Positions 2,234 to 53,097 of a DNA stretch of 64,000 bases are shown here, piece by piece. Position numbers and translations under genes: made by a program. Origin of the DNA: Candidatus Latescibacterota bacterium. Its GTDB lineage: Bacteria; Latescibacterota; UBA2968; GCA-2709665. The stretch spans positions 5,280,001 to 5,344,000 of the forward strand of contig OZ244744.1 of the NCBI GenBank assembly GCA_965219455.1, written 5' to 3'. How positions within the stretch are numbered: position 1 is the first letter of the stretch; the number at the start of each line of letters is the position of its first letter. The notes under the pieces are model-generated. The model made no database searches and was not told where the DNA came from. It worked only from the letters and a program-made list of their open reading frames with translations.

Positions 2234-2290
2234 TGTCGATTCGCGGGGGTCAGCCTGCAACTGCCCTCCGCGCGCCGGGAGAATTCGTCA

Positions 2291-3196: not shown

Positions 3197-3297
3197 TGCG
3201 GTGAGTCGCAAAGGGGTAGACGGCACGAACCGCAGTTGAACCGATCGGCATCGGACGCGGGTTACGGAAATTCTGTTCACACTTGGGGTGCAGACAA

Positions 3298-4488: not shown

Positions 4489-4688
4489 GAATGTTCAGAC
4501 GGTCTCCGCGTGGATGTGTGTACCCATAACGCCCAATCCCCCGTCGGACCGATCCATTTCCAGGGGGCGTTTATTCTGTAAATGGAATCCGGTCAACCCC
4601 GTTTCGGGTACCGGAAGCAGGGCGATCTTGACGCGTGCGGCCTGCCCGCGCCCCTGTCGTCCCTTTTTACCACACTGGAGGTCCGGAT

Positions 4689-27429: not shown

Positions 27430-27468
27430 GACGGGCTGGCTCGACGCCGGATGGCCGGTCCCTGCAAT

Positions 27469-27565
27469 CCTTTCACGATTGAATGAACAAAGCCTGGTAT
27501 GTTGTTGCGTATCAGGCTTTTTTCGTTTCGTTATCCCATCGACGACGGCGGTCGCGTTCAATCCT
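27469..27565 (+). repeat. ~95-bp direct repeat R, copy 1 (contains a terminator-like hairpin)
   Basis: CCTTTCACGATTGAATGAA..AAAGCCTGG..TATCAGGCTTTTT..CCCATCGACGACGGC; second copy at 29364-29457. Confidence 0.85.
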
Positions 27566-27821: not shown

Positions 27822-28811
27822 ATGGCAGAATTCGATGCGATCTCCAAACACCTGATTCAATCCTATCCCGACGACTTTGCCGGCTTCGCCCTCGGCCGCG
27901 AGGACGTTGAGGTCCTTGAAGTCATTGACACCGAACAGCCCACGGTCTCAGCACGCCACGCGGACAGTCTCATTCGAGTCCGCATCGATGGCCGGGAAGC
28001 ATTGGTCCACAACGAATTTCAGACGACCGACAGCACCAACCCGCCCATGCCGCGACGCATGGCGGGTTATATCGGGCGCGCCATTGAACGTCATGGCGTG
28101 TCTGTCTACTCCAGCGTCATCTACCTGCGCCCGGACGCGGGCCAACGAGACCCGGGACAGTATTTGCAGGCGCATCCAGGTCACCGGGTGCTTGTGCAGT
28201 ACAGGGTGATTCGGCTGAGTGAACTGGATGGTCAGGGCATTCTCGATGCGGGACACGAGGGGCTGATCGCCTTTGCGCCGTTGATGAAGCCGCCCGCCGG
28301 GATGGCTTCACAGGCCTGGTTGCGCCACTGTATCCACACGGCTCACGCGCGGCCAATGGCTGCGTCGAAAAAAGCCGATTACCTGGCCGGCATGTCTCTG
28401 CTAAGTGGGTTGGCGTACGCGCCGGAGACCATTTCTGACATTGTCTCAAAGGAGGGTATTATGGACCTCATACGTGAATCATCCTTTGCCCAATACCTCA
28501 CCCGACAGGGCATCGAGCAAGGGATTGAGCAGGGCATCGAACAGGGCATTGAGCAGGGCATCGAACAGGGCATTGAGCGAGGCATTGAGCAGGGGATCAA
28601 GCAGGGCATCGAGCAAGGCATTGAGCAGGGGCTCCGGGATAGCATCCTGGCTGTTTTGGCAATTCGATTCGATCTCCCCGCGTCGCATCCTCTGGCCGCT
28701 TGCATTGCGACGATCGACGACGTCCAGCGCCTCAAGCAGTTGCACCGCGCGGCGGTCCAGGTGTCCAGTCTCGACGCATTCGGTCAACGGTTGGATGAAG
28801 AACAGAATTGA
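27822..28811 (+). CDS. Rpn/YhgA-like PD-(D/E)XK nuclease (putative transposase family), copy 1
   Basis: ADSL...HNEFQT...MPRRM..Y; C-terminal (QGIE)10 repeat, RF...LKQL tail. Confidence 0.85.
   Translation: MAEFDAISKHLIQSYPDDFAGFALGREDVEVLEVIDTEQPTVSARHADSLIRVRIDGREALVHNEFQTTDSTNPPMPRRMAGYIGRAIERHGVSVYSSVIYLRPDAGQRDPGQYLQAHPGHRVLVQYRVIRLSELDGQGILDAGHEGLIAFAPLMKPPAGMASQAWLRHCIHTAHARPMAASKKADYLAGMSLLSGLAYAPETISDIVSKEGIMDLIRESSFAQYLTRQGIEQGIEQGIEQGIEQGIEQGIERGIEQGIKQGIEQGIEQGLRDSILAVLAIRFDLPASHPLAACIATIDDVQRLKQLHRAAVQVSSLDAFGQRLDEEQN
28461..28811 (+). CDS. Putative internally initiated small Rpn (RpnS-like)
   Basis: AAGGAGG followed by an in-frame ATG at 28461; conserved in the other two copies. 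Confidence 0.55.
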   Translation: MDLIRESSFAQYLTRQGIEQGIEQGIEQGIEQGIEQGIERGIEQGIKQGIEQGIEQGLRDSILAVLAIRFDLPASHPLAACIATIDDVQRLKQLHRAAVQVSSLDAFGQRLDEEQN

Positions 28812-28886: not shown

Positions 28887-29363
28887 GAGTTTGATATCGG
28901 AGGGTTTTCAGGATCTGAGTGTTTCGATCCGGATTTGCCGTAACCCGTCGATCGACCTATCCGTCTTGCAGGTGTACGAGGCAATTTCTCTGAAAAAACT
29001 CAACGTCTTTTCCTGTTGATGCCTTTCGCGTATCTTGTCAATGACCTGCGAGAAGAATCCGGTGTGGGGAGCTGGACGTACTGTGCGGCAGGGCCTGGCC
29101 AAATTACAGACGCTCGGCCATCATCCGACGCGAGCAGGAGATGCTTCGTCAGCCTGACGGCTTCCTCAGCATGAAAGTCCGGACGTACGATGAACGAGCC
29201 GTCTCTTCCTGTCGCGATGACTTCCCCCAGGTCTTATACCAAAATCACATCAACTACAGTCTTTTCATGGGGTTAAATCACAGTCCATCCCGATAATCAT
29301 AGTCAATCACAGTCCGATACGTGAATAGAACTCTTCCACGCTGGATGGTCGGTTCCCACCGTC

Positions 29364-29457
29364 CTTTCACGATTGAATGAATAAAGCCTGGTTCGTGGTT
29401 GCATATCAGGCTTTTTCGACTCGTTAACCCATCGACGACGGCCGCATCGTTCAGTCC
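29364..29457 (+). repeat. Direct repeat R, copy 2
   Basis: Homologous to 27469-27565. Confidence 0.85.
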
Positions 29458-38553: not shown

Positions 38554-39001
38554 CCTGAAAATCAGCAGAGGCTGGGGTTCCGTTCGTCCTGAAAACAAGC
38601 TCGACGAGCTTGCCCTCGCCGCTGGCGCCCTGGCCATCCACTTTCACGGCGCCAATTTCCAGTTGGCCCGGCGTCCGGCTTGAAGACAGGAACAGCGTTT
38701 GCTGTCCGGGAACTGCGTTGAGCAGATTGCCCTCCAACTCCCTGGCTTCCAGGAACGCATACTTCACGGGATCGAATTGAAGCGAAAATCCGTATCCTTT
38801 GAGGTTTTTCGTCTCTGACAACGAGACGTGGAGCTTGAGCACGCCGCTCTCGGCCGCCGGGTCGTTTACGCGCTCGAGGGTGAGCGTTGCGAAGGCGTTC
38901 TGCCCTCCGGTAATCGTCAAACCGCGCGTAAGTTCGCCGGCCGATGCAGCGGCGACCGTTGACAAGACCGCGCACATGGATACGACAAGCCGTTTCAACA
39001 T
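38554..39001 (-). pseudogene. 3'-truncated secreted cohesin-domain protein (FlgD-Ig tail lost)
   Basis: Near-identical to 43035-43482 up to SADFQ, then fused to unrelated repeat sequence. Confidence 0.8.
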
Positions 39002-39181
39002 ATCATCCTCCCTGCGATAAAGTGGACGTGGGCGACAAGGGATGTCGGAGATGAATTCACAGTAAACCGCGTCTTGGTTTACAACTGGCGCCTCGCTATT
39101 TCCAAGACGTGTCGAACGTGAACGTCTTTACAGAAGCGCTGGAGAGGGTGGTCCGTGTAATGGAAATCGCCTGGGTAACGC

Positions 39182-42100
39182 CTATTGTGAACAATTCGGG
39201 CCACCGGTCTCCCTGATCCCCTGCAACCACGTCTGAAAGTCCGAATCGAGCGGCGCACACAGGCCTCCTTCCCCTCCGAAGTGAAATACCTCCAGCTTTG
39301 CAAGCGCCGTCAGGCTTTGAGGAAGCGCACCACTCAGCTGATTGAGGCTAAGCCATAGTTGAGTAAGGTTGGCCAGGTTGCCCAATTCCGAAGGTACCAT
39401 ACCGCTTAACCGATTGCCTGCAAGACTCAGTTCCTCCGTCAGGCTGGTCAGATTGCCCAATTCCGATGGAATCACGCCACTCAATTGATTTCCGCCAAGA
39501 TCTAGGTAAGTGAGACTGGTCAAATTGCCCAATTCTGTCGGGATCACTCCACTCAACCTATTGCTGTCGAGACCCAGAAACTCCAGGTTTGAGAGGTTCC
39601 CCAATTCTACGGGTATCGAACCCCTCAACTCGTTTCCGCTCAGATCCAACTCACTAAGATTGGACAGGTTCCCCAATTTAGCAGGAATCGTGCCACTCAA
39701 CTCATTGAAGTCCAGAGTCAGCTCCTTAAGGTCGGACAGGTTACCGAATTTCTCTGGAATACCACCACTCAGCTGATTGCCGCCAAGCCTCAAGCTCCTG
39801 AGGTCGGTGAGGTCTCCCAGTTCCGGGGGAACCTGACCGCTCAATGCATTGCCGCCAAGCTGCAGCTCCGTAAGATTGGTCAGGTCGCTCAGTTCCACGG
39901 GAATCGTTCCGCTCAACTGATTGGAGGGAAGATGCAGAACTTCAAGCTTGGTCAAATTGCCCAGTTCAGCCGGAAGCTCACCCGTCAAGTTATGGTTTCT
40001 CAGGTCAAGGTCTGTAACCCAACCGTTAGAAACGCCAACGCCATGCCAAGTGGAAATGTCATTGTCTGACAGCCAGTTGGTGTTGTTCGTCCAATTGTCT
40101 CCATCCGTCGCATTGTACAGCGCCACCAACGCCTCGCGCTGGGACTCCAGGGCGCAGGTCGGGCCGTTGGACTCTTTGATGCCCCGCAGCCATCGTTGAA
40201 AGGCTTCATCAGCCGGCGCGCACAAACCTGTGCCCTCAAAGAGGAATTTCTCCAGATTTGTCAGCCCTGTCAGGCTTTGAGGCAGCGTGCCCGCTAACGA
40301 CGCGCTGTACTGGAACTCCAATATCCTGAGGTTCGTCAGGTTACCCAGTTCCACGGGAATCGCACCGTTCAGCTGTGTACTCCAGAGTTTCAGTTCTGTG
40401 AGTTTGGACAAGCTCCCCAGTTCCACGGGAATGGCGCCACTCAACGGATTGCCGCCAAGTACCAGTACGCTGAGGCTGTCCAGGCCGCCCAGTTCCACAG
40501 GGATCGGACCGGTCAATTGATTGTCGTAAAGACCCAGCCGTGTGAGGTTGGATAAGCTGCTTAATTCCACGGGAATCGAACCGGTCAACTGATTGTCGCC
40601 AAGATTCAGGAAAGTGAGGTTGGATAAGCTGCTTAATTCCACGGGAATCGAACCACTCAACTGATTCCCAATTAGATACAGCAGTTCCAGGTTTTCCAGG
40701 TTGCTCAATTCGGATGGAATTGGTCCACCCAACTGATTCCCAATTAGATACATCCGTTCCAGGTTGGACAGGTTGCCCAATTCGGATGGAATTGGGCCAC
40801 TCAACTGGTTACCGTGAAGATACAGCTGCTCCAGGTTTTCCAGGTTACCCAATTCGGGTGGAATTGGGCCACTCAACTGATTCCCAATTAGATACATCCG
40901 TTCCAGGTTGGACAGGTTGCCCAATTCGGGTGGAATTGGACCGCTCAATTGCGTCTGGCTAAGAGTCAGATGCTCCAGGTTGGCCAGGTTGGACACTACG
41001 GACGGTATCGAGCCGCTAAACCCTTTTCCACCAAGTGAAAGGCGCTTCAACTTGGTCAGGTTGAACAATTCGGATGGTAGCGAGCCAACCGATTGAATCC
41101 CCGAGAGTATCAAAGTCTCCAGATTGATCAGGTTGAACAATTCGGATGGTATCGGGCCAACCAACTGTTCCGAGCTAAGAAACAGCGTCTCCAGGTTGGT
41201 CAGGTTGCCCAATTCCGGGGGTATCACGCCACTTAACTGATTCTGATCGAGGCTAAGATAAATCAGGTTGGATAGTTTGGCCAACTCGACGGGAATCGGC
41301 CCGCTCAACCCATTCCAGGCGAGGTTGAGAATCGTAAGGGAAGACAGATTACCCAGCTCCACGGGTATCGGCCCCGTCAACGCATTACCGTTGAGTTTCA
41401 GGCTGTCGAGGCTTGCCAGGCTGCTCAACTCCGGAGGGATCGGGCCGGTGAGATTGTTCCGGGACAGGCTCAAGCCCGTGACGCGACCGTTCCCCACTGT
41501 TACGCCGTGCCACGTATCGAGCGGGTTGTCCGTCAGCCAGTTGGTCTGGATCGTCCAGTTGTCCCCGCCGGTTGCGTTGTAAAGCGCCACCAGCACGTCG
41601 CGGTCCGGCGCCGTGGGGGTAGGCGGCGCCACTTCTTGTCCATATAGCCCCGCAAACGCCAGAAAATCCGAAAATCCTACGGCCCCGTCTCCGTCCAGGT
41701 CAAATCGCGCGTCGTAAGTCCCATCACCCTCTTGCGACCCATAGTTGCCCGCGAATTGCACAAAGTCAGTAAACCCAACCGTACCATCGCCGTCGAAATC
41801 CGGCGAAGGACCGGCCGGAAGGGGTCGCAGAACGACATTGATATTCGGCATCAAGGTTTCCTGTTGGCCGCCCCTGCCCAGCGTGGCTTCCACGAAACGG
41901 ATCGTCGTGCCCGTGAACGTGGCTGACGTGCGAAACCGGACCGTGCCGACGAGACCAGCCGTCGCTGCAGCCCGGCCGCCCATCGACGCGACGCCCAGGG
42001 TGACTGACGTCGGGTTCGTCCCGGTCTCCACAAGCACCTGGGCATTGGGAAACAGGTCGCCCGGGTCGGTACCGTCGTAGACGACCTGACCCGCATCGTA

Positions 42101-42370
42101 TACCAAACGAATGGACACGCCCTGCGCCTGGCTCACGTCGCTCGCGTAAACCTGGATGGAAACCGTCGCGTCAGGGGATACCTCCACTGTCATGACCCCC
42201 TGGTCGCCGGCGGCGCCATCCACGTCCGCGGACAGTGAAAAACTGTCCTGTGAAGAAAGAGGCAGCGGGCTAAGCAAAAGGACGATCGACAGGATTGTAA
42301 ACATCGACGTCCGCGCCGCGCCAGGGCGATGGGGCGGCCAACCGGTCAGATGAATTAGTGGTTTGCGCAT
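39182..42370 (-). CDS. Secreted cohesin + EF-hand/dockerin-like + plant-type LRR protein (17+10 repeats)
   Basis: AAGGAG RBS, signal peptide, twin DFDGDG/DLDGDG motifs, two capped 24-aa LxxLxxLxLxxNxLSGxIPxELG arrays. Confidence 0.9.
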   Translation of the reverse strand: MRKPLIHLTGWPPHRPGAARTSMFTILSIVLLLSPLPLSSQDSFSLSADVDGAAGDQGVMTVEVSPDATVSIQVYASDVSQAQGVSIRLVYDAGQVVYDGTDPGDLFPNAQVLVETGTNPTSVTLGVASMGGRAAATAGLVGTVRFRTSATFTGTTIRFVEATLGRGGQQETLMPNINVVLRPLPAGPSPDFDGDGTVGFTDFVQFAGNYGSQEGDGTYDARFDLDGDGAVGFSDFLAFAGLYGQEVAPPTPTAPDRDVLVALYNATGGDNWTIQTNWLTDNPLDTWHGVTVGNGRVTGLSLSRNNLTGPIPPELSSLASLDSLKLNGNALTGPIPVELGNLSSLTILNLAWNGLSGPIPVELAKLSNLIYLSLDQNQLSGVIPPELGNLTNLETLFLSSEQLVGPIPSELFNLINLETLILSGIQSVGSLPSELFNLTKLKRLSLGGKGFSGSIPSVVSNLANLEHLTLSQTQLSGPIPPELGNLSNLERMYLIGNQLSGPIPPELGNLENLEQLYLHGNQLSGPIPSELGNLSNLERMYLIGNQLGGPIPSELSNLENLELLYLIGNQLSGSIPVELSSLSNLTFLNLGDNQLTGSIPVELSSLSNLTRLGLYDNQLTGPIPVELGGLDSLSVLVLGGNPLSGAIPVELGSLSKLTELKLWSTQLNGAIPVELGNLTNLRILEFQYSASLAGTLPQSLTGLTNLEKFLFEGTGLCAPADEAFQRWLRGIKESNGPTCALESQREALVALYNATDGDNWTNNTNWLSDNDISTWHGVGVSNGWVTDLDLRNHNLTGELPAELGNLTKLEVLHLPSNQLSGTIPVELSDLTNLTELQLGGNALSGQVPPELGDLTDLRSLRLGGNQLSGGIPEKFGNLSDLKELTLDFNELSGTIPAKLGNLSNLSELDLSGNELRGSIPVELGNLSNLEFLGLDSNRLSGVIPTELGNLTSLTYLDLGGNQLSGVIPSELGNLTSLTEELSLAGNRLSGMVPSELGNLANLTQLWLSLNQLSGALPQSLTALAKLEVFHFGGEGGLCAPLDSDFQTWLQGIRETGGPNCSQ

Positions 42371-42672
42371 GATATCTCTCCTTTGTTGCATTTCGCTACA
42401 TATCGTTGCGTTTTGCAACAGTTGTTCCGTCGAGGGTTGTTGTCATTAAAGTCCACGGCGTTACCTTCCGGGAGTCACGGCCGCGGGCACCGGGCGGCGG
42501 CAGTGTTTCGGAGCGAGCAAATGGCACCGGTTCCGGCAAGACCGCGGCCACGGCAGAAGGCAGAAGGACACGTTGCCCCGCCGCTTCCCGCTTGTTGGCA
42601 GGTCAGGCAGCAACAAGGACCTCGACCAGGGGTGTCCGGTACAGCGGTTCGAGGGTAATTATCGGTCCGCGC

Positions 42673-43482
42673 CTATTTCAACAATAACATCCGCCTGGAG
42701 GCGGAGACATCGCCGGCCTGGATCCGATACAGATAGATGCCGCTGGCGACCCGCCTGCTCAGCTCGTCCGTGCCATCCCAGGTCGCCGTGAATGAACCGG
42801 CTTCCATCCGCTCGTCGACCAGCACGCGAACCTCCTGGCCCAGCAGGTTGTATATCGCCAGCCGCACCCGACCGGCGTCGGGCAACTGATATCCGATGAC
42901 GGTGGCGGGGTTAAAGGGATTCGGCATATTCTGATCCAGAGCAAACCGGTCGGGCAACGGCTTCAAATCGCCCACTTCAACGCGTGCCGCCGCGTCCAGC
43001 TTACCGTCCAGCCCCACCAGCACGCTCTCCGAGACCTGAAAATCAGCAGAAACCGGTGTGCCGCTCGTCCGGAAGACAAGCTCGACGAGCTTTCCCTCGC
43101 CGCTGGCGCCATGGCCATCCACTTTCACGGCGCCGATTTCCAGTTGGCCCGGCGTCCGGCTCGAAGACAGGAACAGCGTTTTCTGACCGGGAACCCCTTT
43201 GAGCAGATTAACCTCCAACTCCCTGGCGTCCAGGAACGCATACTTCACCGGATCGAACTGAAGCGAAAATCCGTATCCTTTGAGGTTTTTCGTCTGGGAC
43301 AACGAGACGTGGATCTTGAGCACGCCGCTCTCGGCCGCCGGGTCGTTTACGCGCTCGAGCGTGAGCGTTGCGAAGGCGTTCTGTCCTCCGGTAATGGACA
43401 ATCCACGCGTCAGTTCTCCAGCCGATGCGGCAGCGACCGTTGACAAGACCGCGCACATGGATACAACAAGCCGTTTCAGTAT
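42673..43482 (-). CDS. Secreted cohesin-domain protein with C-terminal FlgD-Ig-like domain
   Basis: LKGYGFSLQFDP cohesin-like; QNMPNPFNP...IYNLLGQ...WDG...ASGIYLYR. Start is ATA (43482) or ATG (43458). Confidence 0.8.
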   Translation of the reverse strand: MLKRLVVSMCAVLSTVAAASAGELTRGLSITGGQNAFATLTLERVNDPAAESGVLKIHVSLSQTKNLKGYGFSLQFDPVKYAFLDARELEVNLLKGVPGQKTLFLSSSRTPGQLEIGAVKVDGHGASGEGKLVELVFRTSGTPVSADFQVSESVLVGLDGKLDAAARVEVGDLKPLPDRFALDQNMPNPFNPATVIGYQLPDAGRVRLAIYNLLGQEVRVLVDERMEAGSFTATWDGTDELSRRVASGIYLYRIQAGDVSASRRMLLLK

Positions 43483-43665
43483 ATCATCCTCCCTGCGATA
43501 AAGTGGACCTGGGCGACAAGGGATGTCGGAGATGAATTCACAGTGAACCGCGACCTTGATTGCATTTGGCGCCTCGCTATTCCCGAGACGTGGCGAACGT
43601 GAACGTCTTTACAGAAGCACCGGCGAGGGTGGTCCGTGCAATGGAAATCGCTTGGTGGGTAACGC

Positions 43666-46600
43666 CTATTGCGAGCAATTCGGCCCTCCTTTGTCACTGA
43701 TTCCCTGTAGCCACGTCTGGAACGCCGTATCGAGCGGCGCACATAGCCCTCCTTCTCCCCCAAAGTGAAATATCTCCAGTTTCGTCAGGCTGGTAAGGCT
43801 CAGAGGAAGGGAACCACTCAACTGATTCTCGTTAAGATGCAGTTCAGTGAGATCTGTCAGGTTGCCCAATTCGACAGAAATCGTGCCACTTAACTGATTG
43901 CTCCAAAGAGATAGCGCCCTAAGGTTAGACAGGTTGCCCAATTCTGTTGGGATCCGACCACTCAAATTATTGTCTCCAAGATTCAGATCCGTAAGCTTGG
44001 AAAGGTTGCCCAACTCTGCTGGGATCGGACCTGTCAACTCATTTGCGACAAGATGCAGGACCTCAAGTTTGGGCAAGTTGCCCAATTCGACGGGTATCCC
44101 ACCGCCCAACCCATTTTTAGAAAGATGCAGGTCGGTGAGGTTTGTCAGATTGCCTAGTGACGCTGGTATACCCCCACTTAGTTGATTTTCGCCAAGACCC
44201 AGGAATTCGAGCTTGAAAAGGTTGCCCAATTCTGTTGGGATCGGACCACTCAAATTATTGTCGCCAAGATCCAGTTCCGTAAGATCGGACAGGTTGCCCA
44301 ATTCTGTTGGGATCGGACCTTTCAACTCATTTGCGATAATATGCAGAACCTCAAGTTTGAGCAAGTTGCCCAATTCCACGGGTATCCCACCGCTCAATTC
44401 ATTCTTGTACAGCCATAGGTGAGTAAGCTTGGAAAGGTTGCCCAATTCCACGGGAATTCGACCGCCCAACCCGTTTTGGGAAAGATGCAGGTGCGTGAGG
44501 TTTGTAAGATTGCTTAGTGACGCTGGTATACCCCCACTTAATTGATTGTCGCCAAGACCCAGGTAATCGAGCTTGGAAAGGTCGCCCAGTGCTACCGGGA
44601 TCGTTCCGCTCAACTGATTGAGTCTAAGGTCCAGAGTCAACAGGTTGGACAGATTCGCCAATTCGACGGGAATCGTACCACTCAACTCATTATCGTAAAG
44701 CCACAGGCGAGAAAGATTCGTCAGGTTGCCCAATTCCACGGGTATCTTTCCGCTTAACCCATTTTCGGGAAGATGCAGAGTCTCAAGGTTGGTCAGTTTG
44801 CCCAGTTCCACGGGCAGTTCACCCGTCAGATTATTATCTCTCATGTCCAGGTGTGTAACCCAACCGTTAGAAACCCCGACGCCATGCCACGTGGAAATGT
44901 CATTGTCTGACAGCCAGTTGGTGTTATTCGTCCAATTGTCTCCATCCGTCGCATTGTACAGCGCCACCAACGCCTCGCGCTGGGATTCCAGGGCGCAAGT
45001 CGGGCCGTTGGACTCTTTGATGCCCCGTAGCCAACGTTGAAAGGCTTCATCAGGCGGCGCGCACAGACCTGTGCCCTCGAAGAGAAATTTCTCCAGATTT
45101 TTCAGCCCTGTCAGGCTTTGAGGCAGCGTTCCCGCTAACGACGCGCTGTACTGGAACTCCAATATCTTGAGGTTTGTCAGGTTACCCAGTTCCACGGGAA
45201 CCGCCCCGTTCAGCTGTGTACTCCAGAGCTTCAGTTGTGTGAGTTTGGACAATCTCCCCAGTTCCACGGGAATCGAACCACTCAACGGATTGCCGCCAAG
45301 TACCAGTACGCTGAGGCTGTCCAGGCCACCCAGTTCCACAGGGATCGGACCGGTCAATTGATTGTCGTAAAGCCAGAGGTGTGTGAGGTTGGATAAGCTG
45401 CTTAATTCCACGGGAATCGAACCGGTCAACTGATTGTCGCCAAGATTTATGGCCCTGAGGTTTTCCAGGTTGCCCAATTCGGGTGGGATTGCACCGCTCA
45501 ACTGGTTAATGGAAAGATGCAGCCGTTCCAAGTTTTCCAGGTTGCCCAATTCGGGTGGGATTGCACCGCTCAACTGGTTAACGGTTAGATTCACCTGCTC
45601 CAGGTTTTCCAGGTTGCCCAATTCGGGTGGAATTGGGCCACTCAACTGATTGAAAAATAGATACAGCCGTTCCAGGTTTCCCAGGCTGCCCAATTCGGGT
45701 GGAATTGGACCGCTAAATTGCGTCTGGCTAAGATTCAGCTGCTCCAGGTTGGCCAGGTTGGACACTTCGGACGGTATCGAGCCGCTAAACCCTTTTCCGC
45801 CAAGTGAAAGGTGCGTCAACTTTGTCAGGTTGAACAATTCGGATGGTATCGAGCCAACCGATTGAATCCCCCGGAGGCTCAACCTCTCCAGATTGGTCAG
45901 GTTGCCCAATTTGGATGGTATGGGGCCAACCAACTGTTCCGAGCTAAGAAGCAGTGTCTCGAGGTTGGTCAGATTGCCCAATTCCGATGGTATCACGCCA
46001 CTCAGTTGATTGGAGGTTAGATACAGTCGCTTCAGGTTGGCCAGGTTGCCCAATTCCCGTGGAATCGGACCACTCAACTGACTGCCAAGGAACAGATTCT
46101 CCAGGTTGGTCAGGTTGCCCAATTCTGATGGTATCGTCCCACTCAACTGATTCTGATCAAGGCGCAGATACGTCAGGTTGGATAGTTTGGCCAACTCGAC
46201 TGGAATCGGCCCGCTCAACTCAGTCCGGACGACGTTGAGAATCGTAAGGGAAGCCAGATTACCTAACTCGATGGGTATCACTCCTCTCAACGCATTACCG
46301 TCGAGTTTCAGGCTGTCGAGGCTGGCCAGGCTGCCCAACTCGGGTGGGATCGGGCCGGTGAGATTGTTTCGGGACAGGCTTATCCCCGTGACCCGACCGT
46401 TCGCCGCGGTGACGCCGTGCCACGTATCGAGCGGGTTGTCCGTGAGCCAGTTGGTCTGGGTCGTCCAGTTGTCCCCGCCGGTTGCGTTGTAAAGCGCCAC
46501 CAGCACGTCACGGTCCGGCGCCGTGGGGGTGGGCGGCGCCACTTCTTGTCCGAATTGCCCGGCAAGTGCCAGGAAATCCGAAAATCCCACGGCCCCGTCT

Positions 46601-47280
46601 CCGTCCAGGTCAAACCTCGCGTCGTAAGTCCCATCACCCTCTTGCGACCCATAGTTGCCCGCGAATTGCACAAAGTCAGTAAACCCAACCGTACCATCCC
46701 CGTCAAAATCCGGCGAAGGCCCGGCCGGAACCGGTTGCAATTCAATATTGATATTCGGCATCACGGTTTCCTGTTGGCCGCCCCTGCCCAGCGTGGCTTC
46801 CACGAAACGGATCGTCGTGCCCGTGAACGTGGCTGACGTGCGAAACCGAACCGTGCCCACAAGGCCCGCTGACGCCGCGGCCCGACCGCCCATCGACGCA
46901 ATGCCCAACGTGACCGACGTCGGGTTCGTCCCGGTCTCCACCAGCACCTGGGCATTGGGAAACAGGTCGCCCGGGTCGGTACCGTCGTAGACGACCTGAC
47001 CCGCATCGTATACCAAACGAATGGACACGCCCTGCGCCTGGCTCACGTCGCTCGCGTAAACCTGGATGGAAACCGTCGTTTCAGGGGATACCTCCATCGC
47101 CGTGACCTCCTGGTCGCCGGCGGCGCCATCCACGTCCGCGGACAGTGAAAAACTGTTCTGTGACGAAAGAGACAGCGGGCTAAGCAAAAGGGCGATAAAT
47201 ATGATCGCACAGCCTGAGACAGGCGCGAAAATAAATTCCCCGTTCACGAAACATGTGAGACGATCTCGAAGCGCACGCAT
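43666..47280 (-). CDS. Secreted cohesin + EF-hand/dockerin-like + plant-type LRR protein (18+15 repeats)
   Basis: AGGAG RBS; same architecture as 39182-42370. Confidence 0.9.
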   Translation of the reverse strand: MRALRDRLTCFVNGEFIFAPVSGCAIIFIALLLSPLSLSSQNSFSLSADVDGAAGDQEVTAMEVSPETTVSIQVYASDVSQAQGVSIRLVYDAGQVVYDGTDPGDLFPNAQVLVETGTNPTSVTLGIASMGGRAAASAGLVGTVRFRTSATFTGTTIRFVEATLGRGGQQETVMPNINIELQPVPAGPSPDFDGDGTVGFTDFVQFAGNYGSQEGDGTYDARFDLDGDGAVGFSDFLALAGQFGQEVAPPTPTAPDRDVLVALYNATGGDNWTTQTNWLTDNPLDTWHGVTAANGRVTGISLSRNNLTGPIPPELGSLASLDSLKLDGNALRGVIPIELGNLASLTILNVVRTELSGPIPVELAKLSNLTYLRLDQNQLSGTIPSELGNLTNLENLFLGSQLSGPIPRELGNLANLKRLYLTSNQLSGVIPSELGNLTNLETLLLSSEQLVGPIPSKLGNLTNLERLSLRGIQSVGSIPSELFNLTKLTHLSLGGKGFSGSIPSEVSNLANLEQLNLSQTQFSGPIPPELGSLGNLERLYLFFNQLSGPIPPELGNLENLEQVNLTVNQLSGAIPPELGNLENLERLHLSINQLSGAIPPELGNLENLRAINLGDNQLTGSIPVELSSLSNLTHLWLYDNQLTGPIPVELGGLDSLSVLVLGGNPLSGSIPVELGRLSKLTQLKLWSTQLNGAVPVELGNLTNLKILEFQYSASLAGTLPQSLTGLKNLEKFLFEGTGLCAPPDEAFQRWLRGIKESNGPTCALESQREALVALYNATDGDNWTNNTNWLSDNDISTWHGVGVSNGWVTHLDMRDNNLTGELPVELGKLTNLETLHLPENGLSGKIPVELGNLTNLSRLWLYDNELSGTIPVELANLSNLLTLDLRLNQLSGTIPVALGDLSKLDYLGLGDNQLSGGIPASLSNLTNLTHLHLSQNGLGGRIPVELGNLSKLTHLWLYKNELSGGIPVELGNLLKLEVLHIIANELKGPIPTELGNLSDLTELDLGDNNLSGPIPTELGNLFKLEFLGLGENQLSGGIPASLGNLTNLTDLHLSKNGLGGGIPVELGNLPKLEVLHLVANELTGPIPAELGNLSKLTDLNLGDNNLSGRIPTELGNLSNLRALSLWSNQLSGTISVELGNLTDLTELHLNENQLSGSLPLSLTSLTKLEIFHFGGEGGLCAPLDTAFQTWLQGISDKGGPNCSQ

Positions 47281-47567
47281 GGTCTCCTACCTTTCTGATT
47301 TGACGCCTTCTGGTTGGTGGAAGAGACGATTTTGAATGGACGTAGTCAGACGGACACGAAACAGACCGGATATGAAAGTTGGAAGAATATTTAAATGAGT
47401 GCGCATGTTGCACTGACGCCGGGAGGCACTTGGGAAGTGATCTCTCAGAAATTCGCCCAGCGGGTTCTCGAGCGAACGCCATGGCGTATAGCGGGGTTCC
47501 TTGACCGCGACGAGGAATTCGATACGCCGGTTCGGTTCTCCGGATGCTCGATTCCGGTTCGCCACAA

Positions 47568-47596
47568 TTGACACCACGACACAGGTTCCATATATT
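47568..47596 (+). promoter_or_regulatory. Consensus-like sigma70 promoter for candidate sRNA copy 1
   Basis: TTGACA-17-TATATT. Confidence 0.65.
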
Positions 47597-47602
47597 TACA
47601 GA

Positions 47603-47721
47603 TAGTGATGGCCGCATCCCGTCCCGTGGCGCTATATTGCCGGGGAACACGCGGGCTGTGGACCTTCTTGAATGACCGTCGGTTTTCGACTTTGCGCGTC
47701 AGGGAACCGGCGGTCTTTTTT
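47603..47721 (+). ncRNA. Candidate sRNA, copy 1
   Basis: Lies between the promoter and the hairpin GACCGTCGGTT...AACCGGCGGTC-T6; duplicated at 50259-50375. Confidence 0.5.
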
Positions 47722-47795
47722 GTGCTCGGGCTATCGCCTGGATGAGGGGTTCCGAATTGAACGGGTCGGATTTCTGACGCGTTCAGCCACAATAT

Positions 47796-47828
47796 AACAT
47801 AATAGTCGCAAATTGCAACTATTATGTT
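47796..47828. promoter_or_regulatory. 33-bp palindromic operator-like site overlapping a leftward promoter
   Basis: AACATAATAGT-N11-ACTATTATGTT; minus strand TTGCAA-16-TATATT; copy at 50450-50482. Confidence 0.6.
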
Positions 47829-48215
47829 TCTTTATAATTTTTACGGTTTTCTCTACTATTTCCGCAAATATATCCAAATTCGGCGGGGCTATACGTCGAT
47901 CTCTCCTCCATGTGCCCAACGGGATACTCTGCACCAGGGTTCAGAAGGTCGTGACAATGCCCACTGGAAACACGGTGGGACGGGTCACCCGGCCCACTCA
48001 TCAGCCGGGGGGAAACGGTTAATGATCGCGTATATGCGGCCATTGCAGGATCGGCCTGATGCGGCCGGCTGAGGATCGGTCTATTCGGGCTGCCTGGCGG
48101 CGCCGGTTTACGAGTTTCCGATAATTCTCGGGGATGCAATTGACTTTCTACGGCGATCCCGTATCTTGTTTATACGGAGCCGCCCCCTCTCTCCCAAGGC
48201 CGCAGGGCATCTTGC

Positions 48216-49133
48216 ATGGCAGAATTCGATGCGATCTCCAAACACCTGATTCAATCCTATCCCAACGACTTCGCCGGCTTCGCCCTCGGGCGAGAGGACG
48301 TTGAGGTCCTTGAAGTCATTGATACCGAGCAACTCACGGTATCGGCAAGCCGCGCCGACAGCCTCATTCGCGTCCGCATCGATGGCCGCGAGGTATTGGT
48401 CCACAACGAATTTCAAACGACCGACAGTACGAATCCGGACATGCCGCGACGCATGGCCGGTTATATCGGGCGCGCCATTGAACGTCATGGCGTGTCCGTC
48501 TACTCGAGCGTCATCTACTTGCGGCCCGATGCGGGCAAACGGGATCCGGGCCAATATCTTCAGTCGCATCCCGTGTACCGGGTGCACCTGCAGTACGGGG
48601 TGATTCGGCTGAGTGAACTGGATGGTCAAGAGATTCTCGATGCAGGACAGGCGGGGCTGATCGCCTTTGCTCCCCTGATGAGGCCTCCTGCTGGGATGGC
48701 TTCACGGGCATGGTTGCGCCACTGTATGCACACGGCTCATGCGCGGCCAATGGCTACGCCGGCAAAAGCCGACTACCTGGCCGGCATGTCGCTGCTCAGC
48801 GGGCTGGTGTACGCTCCGGAAACCATTTCTGATATTGTTTCGAAGGAGGGCATGATGGACCTCATACGCGAATCATCCTTTGCACAATACCTTACCCGGC
48901 AGGGCGTCGAGCAAGGGATCGAAAAAGGTATCGAACAAGGCGTTGAGCAAGGGCTCCGGGAGAGTATCCTCGCCGTACTGGAGACTCGATTCGATCTCCC
49001 TGCGTCGCATCCTCTTACTGCTCGCATTGAGACGATTGACAACGTCCAACGCCTTAAAGCGTTGCTTCGCACGGCGGTCAAGGTATCCAGTCCGGAGGAA
49101 TTCGGGCAATTGTTGGATCAGGAACGGCCCTGA
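48216..49133 (+). CDS. Rpn/YhgA-like nuclease, copy 2
   Basis: Close paralog of copy 1 with 4 tetrapeptide repeats; internal AAGGAGG-ATG at 48852/48855. Confidence 0.85.
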   Translation: MAEFDAISKHLIQSYPNDFAGFALGREDVEVLEVIDTEQLTVSASRADSLIRVRIDGREVLVHNEFQTTDSTNPDMPRRMAGYIGRAIERHGVSVYSSVIYLRPDAGKRDPGQYLQSHPVYRVHLQYGVIRLSELDGQEILDAGQAGLIAFAPLMRPPAGMASRAWLRHCMHTAHARPMATPAKADYLAGMSLLSGLVYAPETISDIVSKEGMMDLIRESSFAQYLTRQGVEQGIEKGIEQGVEQGLRESILAVLETRFDLPASHPLTARIETIDNVQRLKALLRTAVKVSSPEEFGQLLDQERP

Positions 49134-49550
49134 TATCCATTCCTTGACGAAAAGCCGCTTCATCGTGCTGAAGAAGAACCGGGAAGAGATCCTCGTATCC
49201 ATCATCCTGCTCATCCGACTATCCTGAAAATCCTGATCCGGACAGTTTCCACCGCCACGGTCTCTTGCAGTCCTGGCAGCGCATACACCCTTTGATTTGC
49301 CTCCTCTTCCTGCTTGCTGGCGCCCGGACATGGTATTCTGAGCTTTCGATTTGATGAATGTGAGCAGACAAGAATGTCTGCTCCACCTTTTCAAGTATTC
49401 CGACGATATCCTGTTCGGACCGGAAGCACGGTGGGACGGGACGCCCGGCCCGCTGATCAGCTGGGGGATAACGGTCGTGGACACGCGTGAGCGGCTCAGG
49501 CGTGGCGACGTGGAGACCACCGCCGAGACGATTTAGGGCAAAAAAACAGT

Positions 49551-49594
49551 GGTGGCGACACTCCGTGATCCCTTTCAGGGACGTCACCACCACT
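49551..49594 (-). terminator. Terminator-like hairpin downstream of the 49644-50030 gene
   Basis: GTGGTGGCGAC...GTCACCACCAC stem with an adjacent A-tract on the + strand. Confidence 0.5.
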
Positions 49595-49643
49595 TCGAGC
49601 ACACAAAAAAACGCCCAAGCGTTGAGCCCGGGCTTCCTGTTTG

Positions 49644-50030
49644 TCACCTGCCCTGTTCTTCAAGAGCGGTAACCCTCCCGTCGAGATTCAACAGGGCATC
49701 CCTTATTGCCTCTTGTGCTTGGATTCGTGCTTTGTCAATCTCGATATCGACCTTGTCTGATTTCTCAAGAGTAGTGAGCCTTTTATTGAAACCCAGGAGC
49801 GCGCGCTTTATTCCCTCGTAGATATCCTTCTGCAGCCTGTCCAATCTCATGGACTGCTGAGCATCTTCCTCGAGCGTGCTGACCCGCTGCTCCAGCGAAT
49901 CCAACATGTCGAAGATCTCGGTATCGTGGTTGTCGGATTCCGACTCGGACGTACCTTACGTGAGCGCGATAAGCAGGCAGACAGCCACACAAGCCAGCAC
50001 GATGAACGTGAACAGATTCCTTCGCAACAT
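49644..50030 (-). pseudogene. Small membrane-anchored/secreted coiled-coil protein with an in-frame stop
   Basis: GGAG RBS, ATG 50030, MLRRNLFTFIVLACVAVCLLIALT, TAA at 49958-56, then in-frame continuation into LEQRVSTLE repeats. Confidence 0.6.
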
Positions 50031-50223
50031 CTATTGCTCCTCTCGCAATCAGTATGGAACGGGGTCGTACCCATTGTCGGATAGACCTTCTCGTATAGCG
50101 TCGCGCAGCCATTTCGACGATGCCTCCTTTATTGGCCCCGAACGTAAAACCAGGAATTGCCGCCGCTATGACACGCTGCAGATTCCCGGTACAGAGGTGG
50201 GTGGCATTTTAGGGATGGTTCGG

Positions 50224-50252
50224 TTGACATACGAGGGGAGTCTCGGTATCTT
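50224..50252 (+). promoter_or_regulatory. Consensus-like sigma70 promoter for candidate sRNA copy 2
   Basis: TTGACA-17-TATCTT. Confidence 0.65.
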
Positions 50253-50258
50253 TTAAAT

Positions 50259-50375
50259 AGATAGGCCGCATCCCATCCCCTGGCGCAATGGCGCTGTGGA
50301 ACACGTGGGCTGTGGACCTTTTTGGATGACCGTCGGTTTTCGACTTTGCGCGTCAGGGAACCGGCGGTCTTTTTT
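50259..50375 (+). ncRNA. Candidate sRNA, copy 2
   Basis: Terminator hairpin identical to copy 1, followed by T6. Confidence 0.5.
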
Positions 50376-50610
50376 GTGCTCGGGCTATCGCCTGGATGAC
50401 GGGTTTCGAATTGAACGGGTCGGATTTCTGACGCGTCCAGCAACAATATAACATAATAGTTGCACATTGAAACTATTATGTTTTTTTATGTTTTTATCTA
50501 CTAATTCCGTACAATATATACAAATTCGGCGGGACTATACGTCGATCGCTCCTCCATGTGCCCAACGGGATACTCTGCACCAGGGTTCAGAAGGTCGTGA
50601 CAATGTCCAT

Positions 50611-51335
50611 CGGGTGCACGTGCAGTACAGGGTGATTCGGCTGAGTGAACTCAATGGTCAAGAGATTCTCGATGCAGGACAGGCGGGGCTGATCGCCTTT
50701 GCTCCCTTGATGAGGCCCCCTCAAGGGATGGCTTCACGGGCATGGTTGCGGCACTGTATGCACGCGGCTCATACGCGGCCAATGGTTACGCCGTCAAAAG
50801 CCGACTATCTGGCCGGCATGTCGCTGCTCAGCGGGCTGGTGTACGCTCCGGAAACCATTTCTGAAATTGTTTCGAAGGAGGGCACGATGGACCTCATACG
50901 CGAATCATCCTTTGCACAATACCTTACCCGCCAGGGCGTCGTGCAAGGGATCGAGCAGGGGATCGAACAGGGGATCGAACAAGGCGTTGAGCAAGGGCTC
51001 CGGGAGAGTATCCTCGCCGTACTGGAGATTCGATTCGATCTCCCTGCGTCGCATCCTCTGACTGCTCGCATTGAGACGATTGACAAACGCCTTAACAGCC
51101 CGTTGAAAAAGTCCATCCGGGCTGCGTTCGGCCCTTGTGGCCGAAATACTGCGTTGCACTCCCTCCCCGAATCCCCCGATTCGACGCGGTCGCGCGCCTT
51201 GTCTTCGGCCACAATGACTCGGCCTCGCCTGCAGAGCGACTTTATCAACAGACTGTTAAAGCGTTGCTTCGCACGGCGGTCAAGGTATCCAGTCCGGAGG
51301 AATTCGGGCAATTGTTGGATCAGGAACGGCCCTGA
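50611..51335 (+). pseudogene. Rpn copy 3: N-terminal nuclease domain deleted, C-terminus split by the MITE
   Basis: Matches copy 2 from 48579 onward; retains the RBS and ATG 50887. Confidence 0.85.
51096..51255. mobile_element. 160-bp MITE, copy 2 (inverted relative to copy 1)
   Basis: TIRs CAGCCCGTTGAAAAAGT / ACTTTATCAACAGACTG; TTAA duplication; empty site GCCTTAAAGCG in rpn copy 2. Confidence 0.9.
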
Positions 51336-51647
51336 TATCCATTCCTTGACGAAAAGCCGCTTCATCGTGCTGAAGAAGAACCGAGAAGAGATCCCTCGTA
51401 TCCATCATCCTGCTCATCCGACCATCCTGAAAATCCTGATCCGGACAGTTTCCACCGCCACGGTCTCTTGCAGTCCTGGCAGCGCCTAAACCCGTCGATT
51501 TATCTCCTCCTCCTGCTTGCTAGCGCCCGGACATGGTATTCTGAGGTTTCGGTTAGATGTATGTGAGCAGACAAGAATGTCTGCTCCACCTTTTCAAGTA
51601 TTCCGACGATATCCTGTTCAGCCCGATCGCTTTTGAACGGAAAAAAC

Positions 51648-51677
51648 AAAGGAGGCCGATGTATTGGCCTCCTTTTT
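51648..51677 (-). terminator. Terminator after tRNA-fMet
   Basis: AAAGGAGGCCGAT-GT-ATTGGCCTCCTTT. Confidence 0.75.
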
Positions 51678-51684
51678 GTTTTTT

Positions 51685-51761
<77 letters not shown>

Positions 51762-51807
51762 ACCATCATGTCCCATATACTGAAATCTATCAATCCGAAG
51801 CGTTTTG

Positions 51808-53097
51808 TCAAGCGATTTCTTGGGTTTTGCCGTGCTTGCTCCGGTCAGGTTCCTGTTTGACAATCCGAACCGTGGTAATGCGTTGCCCAACCACTTCCTC
51901 CACCAACAGTGTGAGGTTTTCGAAAACAAAGGTTTCGTGGGGACCCGGAACGCGACCCAGGTGGTTGTATATGAAACCCCCCAGGGTTTCGTATCCGTCG
52001 CGCGGAAGTTCGATATTCAGGATCAGGTTGAGGTCGTCTATATCGAGTCGGGCGTCGGCAACCAGCACGTGCCCGTCTTCGTCCCAGTGGTACAGTTGCT
52101 CTTCCTCGTCGTATTCGTCGTGGATTTCACCGACAATCTCTTCAATCAGGTCCTCCAGCGTGACCAGCCCGGAGGTGCCGCCGAATTCATTGATAACAAT
52201 CGCCATATGCACCTTGTTGGTCTTGAACTCTCGCATCAACTCTGCGATTTTCTTGTTTTCAGGCACGAAAACCGGCTGGCGCATGGCGCCCTCGGGCGTC
52301 CAGGCCTGCCCCGTGCTGAGAAGTTCGAGCAGATCCTTGGCGTACACCACGCCTTCGATGTGGTCCACGCGTTCCCGATAAATCGGAATACGGGAATGCC
52401 GCTTCTGCTGAATCAGGGCCAGGATATCCTCCGGTTTGGAGGAGATTTCGGCGCACGCCATGTCAATGCGCGGCACCATCACTTCCTTCACAGTCGTATC
52501 GCCGAACTCGAAAATGCCGGCGATCATGTCCCGTTCTTCCTCTTCTATGGTACCTTCCTCGGTTTCAGTTTCCACGATCTGCCGCAGTTCCTCCTCCTTG
52601 ATGGCCCTGGTATCGGTTTCGCTGACAAAAAGGCTCCGTGTTTTCTGCAGGAGCAGCGCCGGGGCCAGAAGCAGCACATATAGTGGGTAGTAGATGGCAA
52701 TCAGGTGAGGCACCGGGCGGTCGGATCCCTCTTCGCGCCTGTAGAAAGAGATCGCATTGTCAATCAGCAGCGAAATCAGCACGAACGCGGCGATGCTCAG
52801 CAGATCTCGCAGAAGTGGCCAGGCGAAATCGTTCAGCCCGGATCTGGCGAGAAAGGCGAACGCAAGCCCGCCCATCGCTATGGACAGCGATTGGCCAAAC
52901 GTGACCGTCAGGCCCAGGGCGTATCTTGGTCGGTACATCGACAGCAGGAGGTTCGCGCGGGGGACGGCTTCGTCGCGGAGGCGTTCAAGCGTCGCCCGGG
53001 AAATCGTGCTTCCAATTGCGCCCACCCGGGCAATCAGAGCGGTGATGACCAGAGACCCACCCGAGACAAGTGCTGCCAACCATTCGGAGTCATCCAA
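51808..53097 (-). CDS. HlyC/CorC (CNNM-like) hemolysin-family protein, CBS pair + CorC_HlyC
   Basis: VKEVMVPR, HSRIPIY, NEFGGTSGLVTLEDLIEEIVGEI, YETLGG. Confidence 0.9.
   Translation of the reverse strand: MDDSEWLAALVSGGSLVITALIARVGAIGSTISRATLERLRDEAVPRANLLLSMYRPRYALGLTVTFGQSLSIAMGGLAFAFLARSGLNDFAWPLLRDLLSIAAFVLISLLIDNAISFYRREEGSDRPVPHLIAIYYPLYVLLLAPALLLQKTRSLFVSETDTRAIKEEELRQIVETETEEGTIEEEERDMIAGIFEFGDTTVKEVMVPRIDMACAEISSKPEDILALIQQKRHSRIPIYRERVDHIEGVVYAKDLLELLSTGQAWTPEGAMRQPVFVPENKKIAELMREFKTNKVHMAIVINEFGGTSGLVTLEDLIEEIVGEIHDEYDEEEQLYHWDEDGHVLVADARLDIDDLNLILNIELPRDGYETLGGFIYNHLGRVPGPHETFVFENLTLLVEEVVGQRITTVRIVKQEPDRSKHGKTQEIA

Follow-up and report, generated by a model that had tools for sequence, protein, structure and literature searches.

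The window analysed here, a stretch of 64,000 nucleotides from a Candidatus Latescibacterota bacterium (assembly GCA_965219455.1, contig OZ244744.1, positions 5,280,001 to 5,344,000), contains two copies, A and B, of a module that encodes a small RNA (sRNA), which represents a new family among RNAs of a known type. The interpretation that we favour, with moderate probability, is that of a structured RNA of about 115 nt that has its own sigma-70-type promoter and terminator and serves as a countertranscript in the leader of the operons of a regulon, because a transcript from a facing promoter, termed P_left, would have to cross the sRNA gene in antisense orientation. The sequence architecture, the family of copies, the strand-specific fold and the synteny were obtained from the data; from these we infer both transcripts, the direction of the effect and the binding proteins. 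The sRNA genes in the window comprise the following features:

47568 to 47596, plus strand: promoter of sRNA copy A, TTGACA-17-TATATT, matching the consensus at 11 of 12 positions
50224 to 50252, plus strand: promoter of sRNA copy B, TTGACA-17-TATCTT, matching the consensus at 10 of 12 positions
47603 to 47722, plus strand: sRNA copy A, with a long 5' hairpin, a single-stranded CU-rich linker, a 3' hairpin and a U6 tail
50258 to 50376, plus strand: sRNA copy B, with its terminator at 50329 to 50375 and a covariance-model match at 50261 to 50376 (116.2 bits)
47675 to 47721, plus strand: intrinsic terminator of copy A, consisting of a 10-bp outer stem, an inner stem and T6, the most conserved part of the family
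47727 to 47740, plus strand: short GC-rich hairpin just past the U-run, recognised by eye in the alignment and the fold

Both module copies open with a TTGACA-17 promoter, as had been stated in the initial annotation, and the 5' end of sRNA copy A at 47603 was placed by reference to the -10 box. A promoter scan over 1.1 kb yielded four promoter-like sites, compared with 0.9 +/- 1.0 in shuffled sequences. The 17-bp promoter spacers of the two copies are indeed unrelated to each other, but the earlier conclusion that the boxes were kept by selection has a simpler explanation, since copy B joins the promoter of another family member and all members possess these boxes. High identity between the two copies starts at 47610 and 50264, a few bases inside the predicted RNA, and the duplicated module extends from 47610 to 47974 and from 50264 to 50620 with an identity of about 90%. 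The hairpin with its T6 tract, reported as identical in both copies, shows no differences between 47675-47721 and 50329-50375. It represents a GC-rich stem-loop (47675 to 47714) directly followed by a U-run (T6, 47716 to 47721), as expected of an intrinsic terminator; a simple terminator scanner missed it because the apical region exceeds the 3-8 nt loop rule. The GC-rich hairpin behind the U-run is present in most family copies, with differing stem sequences, as judged by eye.

A blastn search with 47560-47980 as query detected 13 loci in the source genome (G000; 5.84 Mb, one contig), which bears out the proposal of a portable module in the sense of a dispersed, multi-copy module. A third full module is located at 5655733-5656137, and ten further loci match only the first ~160 nt, that is, the promoter, the RNA and the terminator. 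A covariance model (R1) built from an alignment of 12 copies recognised copy A at 47607-47722 with 118.9 bits; across the source genome, 12 copies scored between 99.9 and 132.5 bits, one degenerate copy 60 bits and two weak matches about 37 bits. Matches of at least 60 bits were found in seven of 60 related genomes, six belonging to the same genus (G002, G006, G011, G012, G013 and G014) and one to a sister genus (G015), with additional matches near 49 bits in G017; at E <= 0.01, 23 of 61 genomes including G000 gave matches, most of them weak. An exact-pattern scan of 185,579 species genomes returned ten loci, nine of which match the covariance model. Eight of these are in metagenome-assembled genomes titled Candidatus Latescibacterota and one is labelled Gemmatimonadota; the tenth locus, labelled Actinomycetota, gave no match to the model. 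Two pattern scans of metagenome contigs gave nothing, and the covariation set was therefore not widened. As judged from these scans, the sRNA family does not extend beyond a small group of genomes within Candidatus Latescibacterota. The earlier statement that no known RNA family was recognisable agrees with an Rfam 15 search of 46500-52000 with E values up to 1, in which the sRNA was unmatched and a tRNA at 51688-51761 alone was reported; a search with three other copies and E values up to 10 gave two chance matches, neither of which overlaps the sRNA. Promoter boxes of the TTGACA-17-TATATT type reach the scan threshold in 23 of 28 family units. Several paralogs have a promoter and upstream region in common, as is characteristic of sibling sRNAs. 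Between subfamilies the sRNAs are 73-94% alike.

The consensus sRNA of about 115 nt folds into a 5' hairpin of three stacked helices, an unpaired CU-rich linker and a 3' hairpin of 16 pairs that is followed by the U-run. Copy A has a minimum free energy of -56.4 kcal/mol (z = -3.64). In an alignment of 26 sequences, a 40-pair structure that was specified by the author and derived from one of these sequences had 89.1% of its cells paired, compared with 35.6-47.5% when the 3' partners were slid by one to three columns. Changes on both sides occurred in 12 of the 40 pairs versus 5.9 +/- 1.5 in shuffles, none of 500 shuffles reaching 12. These changes amount to modest covariation among related sequences. 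Helix 3, corresponding to the 3' hairpin of the terminator, is the most conserved part with 96.9% pairing, and more distant or degenerate copies retain the 3' hairpin only. In all 26 sequences, the plus strand folds more stably than the reverse complement (mean -53.5 versus -42.3 kcal/mol; mean z -3.9 versus -0.9), and many of its pairs are G-U, which argues that the structured molecule is the plus-strand RNA and not the leader of the leftward transcript. The motifs and the strand-specific fold are accordingly in support of the initially postulated structured plus-strand RNA of ~118 nt with its own promoter and terminator.

A riboswitch-like leader or attenuator for the rightward genes, in which the hairpin and U-run would form a conditional terminator and CTGACGCG the anti-terminator partner, is very unlikely. 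This explanation derives from the 8-nt complementarity between CGCGTCAG and CTGACGCG that is found in copies A and B and that had been taken to allow an alternative fold; the further hairpins past the U-run and the imperfect U-run of the copies L021-L024 would be compatible with it. However, the complementarity is lost without compensation in two of the four full modules (L016 and L051), and the alternative fold was rejected since it is not conserved across the four-copy alignment. Moreover, the copies have unrelated genes on their right, often on the opposite strand, the rpn gene has its own promoter, and no riboswitch of Rfam was matched.

To the right of the sRNA, the module carries the elements of the facing promoter:

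47791 to 47818, minus strand: P_left of copy A, TTGCAA-16-TATATT, TG-extended, with a predicted start near 47784
47796 to 47828, no strand: palindrome of copy A with a 16-1-16 arrangement over the -35 box and spacer of P_left, a candidate operator
47840 to 47875, no strand: two 17-bp direct repeats of copy A with the consensus TTTMCGNWTTTATMTAC and a period of 19, a candidate activator site
50445 to 50472, minus strand: P_left remnant of copy B, TTTCAA-16-TATATT, with a palindrome at 50450 to 50482 that is followed by a 9-bp deletion

The 33-bp palindrome right of the hairpin, noticed at the outset as overlapping a leftward promoter in copy A, was recovered in this position. Its arms (47796-47811 and 47813-47828) are 94% complementary, it is located 74 bp past the T-run, and as RNA it folds with -13.6 kcal/mol (z = -5.09). 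In copy B, the -10 box of P_left is kept and the -35 box reads TTTCAA, which places the promoter below the scan threshold. The surrounding AT-rich block, extending from about +165 to +300 relative to the sRNA start, is present in ten of the 13 copies (A, B, L016, L018, L019, L020, L021, L022, L023 and L024) as well as in L027, L051 and the regulator-linked L033 of related genomes. A minus-strand -10 box TATATT occurs at +184 to +191 in 11 units, and it is accompanied by a -35 hexamer at a distance of 16-18 nt in copies A and B, L016, L018, L019, L020, L021-L023 and L027. These hexamers are TTGCAA, TTTCAA, TTGCAC, TTGAAT, TTGCAT, TTGGAT and TTGTAT, with spacers that vary by subfamily, and P_left at this offset passes a 9-of-12 scan in seven of 28 units. 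The inverted repeat over the -35 box and spacer has another sequence in other subfamilies (L020, L021), and the direct repeats lie about 10 nt upstream of the -35 box of P_left. A genome search for the tandem repeats returned 20 matches, 12 of which fall at nine sRNA modules with a constant offset of +214 to +252. The promoter scan revealed no consistent candidate for a rightward promoter in the AT-rich block, and inspection of 47830-47970 by eye revealed no small open reading frame (ORF) conserved among copies A, B, L016 and L051. It is the positional constancy, and not the score, that gives P_left its weight as a predicted promoter.

Further elements were noticed in the neighbourhood of P_left cassettes. 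A variant element at 1059196-1059313 of the source genome (minus strand), found also near 1268626 and 1272012 (L066, L068), is associated with P_left and repeat cassettes; a diverged 3' hairpin of the sRNA is kept, the 5' part is different and no sigma-70-like promoter was seen. Either another type of RNA or a decayed copy could be present here, and two of the three occurrences precede dockerin/LRR (leucine-rich repeat) genes. The motif TGTTGCAA-N4-GCAACAG with GGCGCA-N4-TGCGACAG was observed near several P_left cassettes (L071, L072 and, in relatives, L028, L050 and L053), about 100-250 nt from the direct repeats.

The copy L017b occupies the founding locus of the family, where it is divergent to a response-regulator gene encoding a receiver and an AraC-type helix-turn-helix (HTH) domain. 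Regulator orthologs with 45-65% identity occupy the same divergent place beside the sRNA in G013, G011, G006 and G012, and the divergent pair is therefore present in five genomes including G000. In all five genomes, the ATG or GTG start codon of the regulator is the complement of the sRNA -35 box, as read by the author from the alignment and the translations: on the opposite strand, TTGACA with a following T or C becomes ATGTCAA or GTGTCAA, and the protein similarity of the regulators begins there. The homology of other copies to the founding locus extends from about -114 to +118 and includes the first codons of the regulator. A corresponding relic is present in the window:

47290 to 47595, minus strand: decayed regulator copy of copy A, filling the 290 bp from the LRR gene to the sRNA promoter

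In a BLASTP comparison, amino acids 1-35 of this relic are 51% identical to the regulator (E 3e-8), and amino acids 20-99 are 33% identical to regulator residues 127-210 (E 6e-12). The 96-codon ORF 47287-47577 was rejected as a gene: it represents the regulator relic, has no Pfam match, and its counterpart in the paralog L016 has a broken frame. The regulator homology at other copies indicates that the family arose by repeated copying of the regulator-sRNA locus. As an additional observation, the founding sRNA lies between the regulator and a hybrid histidine kinase gene (L017:6689-9166; GAF-PAS-HisKA-HATPase-REC-Trans_reg_C) in the source genome; in the other four genomes, flanks of 1-1.5 kb contain no adjacent kinase gene of this kind.

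Such copying could also describe a repeated DNA element without RNA function, namely a relic of the regulator locus under gene conversion, a recombination hot spot or a mobile cassette in which the promoter and terminator motifs are passive. The copies do carry a decaying fragment of the regulator, the homology limits recur at about -114 and +118, a MITE-like (miniature inverted-repeat transposable element) sequence is nearby, and five of nine tblastn matches to Rpn-like genes or fragments have an sRNA copy no more than 2.5 kb away. Nevertheless, this explanation is improbable: the regulator part decays while the sRNA promoter, fold and terminator remain intact in 12 of the 13 copies, the compensatory changes and plus-strand G-U pairs indicate selection on an RNA, and the unit has no flanking terminal inverted repeats. 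In three copies, no terminal inverted repeats of the kind found at insertion sequence or MITE ends bracket the unit from -114 to +300, nor do inverted repeats bracket the promoter segment as in an invertible promoter. Among the joints listed for contigs of four metagenome runs, none changes strand; all are skips apart from one that goes back (49467 to 48103). These joints, which have short sides and 90% likeness, probably derive from paralogous loci.

A leftward gene is present in 11 of the 13 copies, and the product is in most cases a secreted repeat protein. Leftward LRR proteins are encoded at A, L016, L019 and L025 and in an operon at L020, fn3/cadherin proteins at L021-L023, a metallopeptidase-like protein at L024 and the regulator at L017b; the gene of copy B is disrupted. 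The leftward genes of the window are the following:

43669 to 47280, minus strand: gene for a secreted LRR/cohesin-domain protein of 1204 aa (Pfam) with an N-terminal signal-like sequence, the presumed target of P_left
49641 to 50030, minus strand: leftward gene of copy B, with 24 signal-like codons, an in-frame TAA and a 103-codon open frame

The LRR gene starting at 47280 was predicted correctly, as is evident from its LRR and cohesin matches in Pfam. The coiled-coil gene proposed at 50030 contains a heptad-like charged frame by eye, but its ORF ends after 24 codons at the in-frame TAA, and by its sequence it is probably a pseudogene. Scans of copy A revealed no other sigma-70-like leftward promoter in 47200-47790 and no leftward terminator in the leader. 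For the leftward genes of L021-L023, the interval from -36 to the hydrophobic signal-peptide core is free of start codons, which means that translation starts at -21 to -36, inside the sRNA promoter. A start codon in this position, as in L021-L023 and in the regulator gene, implies that the predicted mRNA begins within or beyond the sRNA gene and overlaps it in antisense. The initially suspected convergent promoter, whose transcript would run antisense through the sRNA into the leftward gene, is supported, and the arrangement recurs in ten of the 13 copies with different spacers and a different inverted repeat. As far as sequence motifs can tell, the sRNA conforms to a countertranscript with its own promoter and terminator opposite the leader of its target. 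A conserved ORF on the antisense strand was considered and rejected: the antisense strand is open across the sRNA in L019 and L021-L023, though not in the same frame.

Two additional observations concern the LRR region. Two large paralogous LRR genes are arranged in tandem on the minus strand at 39172-47280, with a 72-nt repeat periodicity. After each gene comes a segment of 300 bp, and these two segments are also paralogous (38554-38853 and 43035-43334; 92% identity); the second of them lies inside a FlgD-Ig-like gene (42676-43458).

Several findings weigh against the countertranscript interpretation. The -35 boxes of P_left are weak, with three to four matches out of six, and 15% of shuffled sequences of the same composition yield some promoter-like site in 180 nt. 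L018 has the P_left block and no leftward gene, and L051 retains the -10 box with a spacer shortened by a 7-bp deletion. L017a and the founder L017b are without the P_left block. The remaining eight matches of the tandem-repeat search are off the 13 copies, seven of them at other loci and the eighth at a distance of 1.9 kb from L025, the degenerate copy; in the author's reading an intact sRNA is absent from all eight, three have a degenerate sRNA-like 3' hairpin, and it follows that P_left-type cassettes do not need the sRNA. The genes leftward of the extra cassettes that were scanned encode dockerin/LRR proteins, a TonB-dependent receptor, trypsin-FHA proteins and a kinase with an FGE-sulfatase domain. 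Since the copies are paralogs, their shared features are in part due to common descent or gene conversion. A point in favour of the interpretation comes from L021-L023, which represent one segmental duplication and in which the region from -39 to +300 is 92-100% identical. The coding DNA on either side has an identity of 76-81% when L023 is compared with each of the other two; L021 and L022 still agree at 91-95% in the near flank (-330 to -40), and their distal flank alone drops to 78%. Copy A and L016, likewise one segmental duplication (85.5% identity over 3 kb), show no such contrast, with 91% identity in the sRNA and 93-94% in the flanks. A search of sequencing runs for the region found none listed on record as RNA.

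A different function would be that of sibling trans-acting sRNAs that are co-regulated by the adjacent response regulator via their conserved upstream region and whose linker pairs with distant ribosome-binding sites, the position of P_left being incidental or reflecting a second role. We regard this as possible though rather doubtful. It agrees with the 13 paralogs and their conserved promoter and upstream region, with the divergent founding copy in five genomes, with the two copies that have no P_left block, and with the conserved, unpaired CCUUCCUGGA-like linker between the hairpins. This linker is variable, however, reading CUUCUUGAAU in copy A, and a trans-acting function alone leaves unexplained both the fixed P_left geometry in ten of the 13 copies and the start codons within the sRNA promoter.

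According to the countertranscript interpretation, P_left would drive the leftward operon, probably under the control of the direct repeats and the inverted repeat, and the linked AraC-type regulator is the obvious candidate for the protein that binds the P_left repeats. The sRNA promoter would fire head-on inside the leader and give rise to a stable, terminated RNA with full complementarity to 115 nt of the leader. The duplex of sRNA and leader might then be processed or alter the stability of the transcript, or the polymerases might collide or one promoter be occluded by the other, and either route or both may operate. The effect could in principle have either sign; the head-on arrangement suggests that the sRNA is probably an antisense brake on the surface-protein gene. 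Since the sRNAs are 73-94% alike, each of them could also pair imperfectly with the leaders of other loci. A more far-reaching and speculative proposal, which we consider unlikely, is a regulon-wide leader cassette composed of a regulator-activated promoter with two direct repeats, an operator-like inverted repeat and an embedded countertranscript, which would have been copied with a piece of the regulator in front of at least ten operons for envelope or secreted proteins and would establish a coupled, threshold-dependent or mutually exclusive switch of surface proteins.

The initial annotation had also tied the module to rpn genes, and this association, which is secondary, was not supported: the rpn-type right-hand part is confined to three of the 13 copies (A, B and L016), the intact Rpn-like gene of copy A has its own promoter (TTGACT-16-TATCTT at 48140-48167), and rpn of copy B is a 5'-truncated, frameshifted remnant in which the first ~120 codons are missing. 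The copy A gene (48216-49133) matches TIGR01784 in its C-terminal part only and with 22.2 bits, below the cutoff of 52.1, and has no Pfam match; its closest look-alikes among the Atlas clusters carry the names Rpn family or DUF4351 (0.97), which serves as a lead only. That the sRNA might be a partner or guide RNA of rightward PD-(D/E)XK nucleases, either Rpn-like (A, B, L016) or an AAA-ATPase with PDDEXK_9 (L021, L022), is extremely unlikely. A downstream gene or remnant in the same direction is found in five of the 13 copies, but the other eight have no such gene, A and L016 represent one segmental duplication and L021-L023 another, the gene of copy B is a remnant, and two of the four full-length Rpn-like genes are without a nearby sRNA.

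The Rpn-like genes are surrounded by several repeated sequences. The rpn remnant of copy B is interrupted by a MITE-like element (51091-51271), which is about 170-180 bp long and has terminal inverted repeats of 28 nt, and the same element is present downstream of the sRNA copy L020 (L020:5424-5591; 94% identity). It is highly repeated, as can be concluded from a summed contig depth of 900-5200 versus tens elsewhere in four metagenome runs. In copy A, the Rpn-like gene and its promoter are enclosed by a 57-bp direct repeat (47963-48019 and 49419-49475; 84%), of which a further copy lies at 5667558-5667611 of the source genome; the repeat may mark a cassette boundary. An 82-nt repeat (27441-27522 and 29335-29416; 84%) that ends with a hairpin and T-run flanks a third Rpn-like paralog at about 27822-28805; it is a candidate small RNA or terminator element and unrelated in sequence to the sRNA studied here. 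Tandem repeats of 12 nt encoding (G-I/V-E-Q)n are located in the C-terminal part of the Rpn-like genes (28485-28654, 48891-48964 and 50923-51008), with a copy number that varies between the paralogs. The tRNA gene at 51688-51761 (minus strand, 65.4 bits) lies directly past the conserved region downstream of the copy B rpn remnant.

A literature search for RNA regulators of Candidatus Latescibacterota turned up no relevant publication, and to our knowledge this phylum is without cultured members. With the sRNA family, these bacteria offer a concrete and testable unit of regulation for their many surface proteins of the LRR, fn3, cadherin and cohesin/dockerin types, and with a size of about 400 bp the unit is small enough for reporter fusions in a laboratory host. 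It is also an example of a regulator-sRNA locus whose copies have found new use as leaders of other genes.

Structured antisense RNAs of about 70-110 nt that are transcribed from a strong promoter inside the leader of their target include CopA/CopT of plasmid R1, RNA I/RNA II of ColE1 and RNA-OUT of IS10. The sRNA described here resembles them as a short, highly structured antisense RNA located in a target leader. It differs in that the targets are operons for envelope or secreted proteins and a regulator gene instead of replication or transposition functions, and in that the family is multi-copy and dispersed. Sets of sibling sRNAs, such as Qrr1-5, LhrC1-5 and the csRNAs, are likewise paralogous, have a common promoter architecture and contain a CU-rich unpaired stretch that could mask ribosome-binding sites, and the divergent orientation of one copy to a regulator gene corresponds to the regulator-adjacent pairs oxyS/oxyR, gcvB/gcvA and qrr1/luxO. 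In contrast to these sRNAs, most copies of the family have a fixed convergent geometry with a second promoter, and the copies took part of the regulator gene along as they spread. The sites of AraC/XylS-type activators typically consist of two direct repeats about two helical turns apart beside the -35 box, and this is matched by the candidate 17-bp repeats with their 19-bp period, about 10 nt upstream of the -35 box of P_left, and by the AraC-type HTH of the linked regulator; the founding locus of the source genome, on the other hand, is without the repeats.

The closest described system is prgQ/prgX of the Enterococcus plasmid pCF10, with its Anti-Q and Qs RNAs and the PrgX operator. The two promoters of this system face each other across 223 nt, and control is exerted jointly by antisense RNAs, by the repressor PrgX and by transcriptional interference (PMC3181467). 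Both systems have face-to-face promoters about 200 nt apart, a small RNA antisense to the 5' leader of the opposing operon and a protein-binding site at one promoter, these being predicted or candidate elements in our case, and in both antisense pairing and interference can be combined. There is no sequence similarity between pCF10 and the sRNA module. Unlike pCF10, the sRNA modules are chromosomal and occupy more than ten loci per genome, no peptide signal or repressor gene is present in the overlap, and the scan of the leftward leader showed no terminator that the sRNA could favour. Moreover, the pCF10 RNA is processed from a longer mRNA, whereas the sRNA of the present family has a strong terminator of its own. 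If the proposal of a regulon-wide leader cassette were true, the set of cassettes would be a chromosomal, multi-locus analogue of the bistable switch of pCF10.

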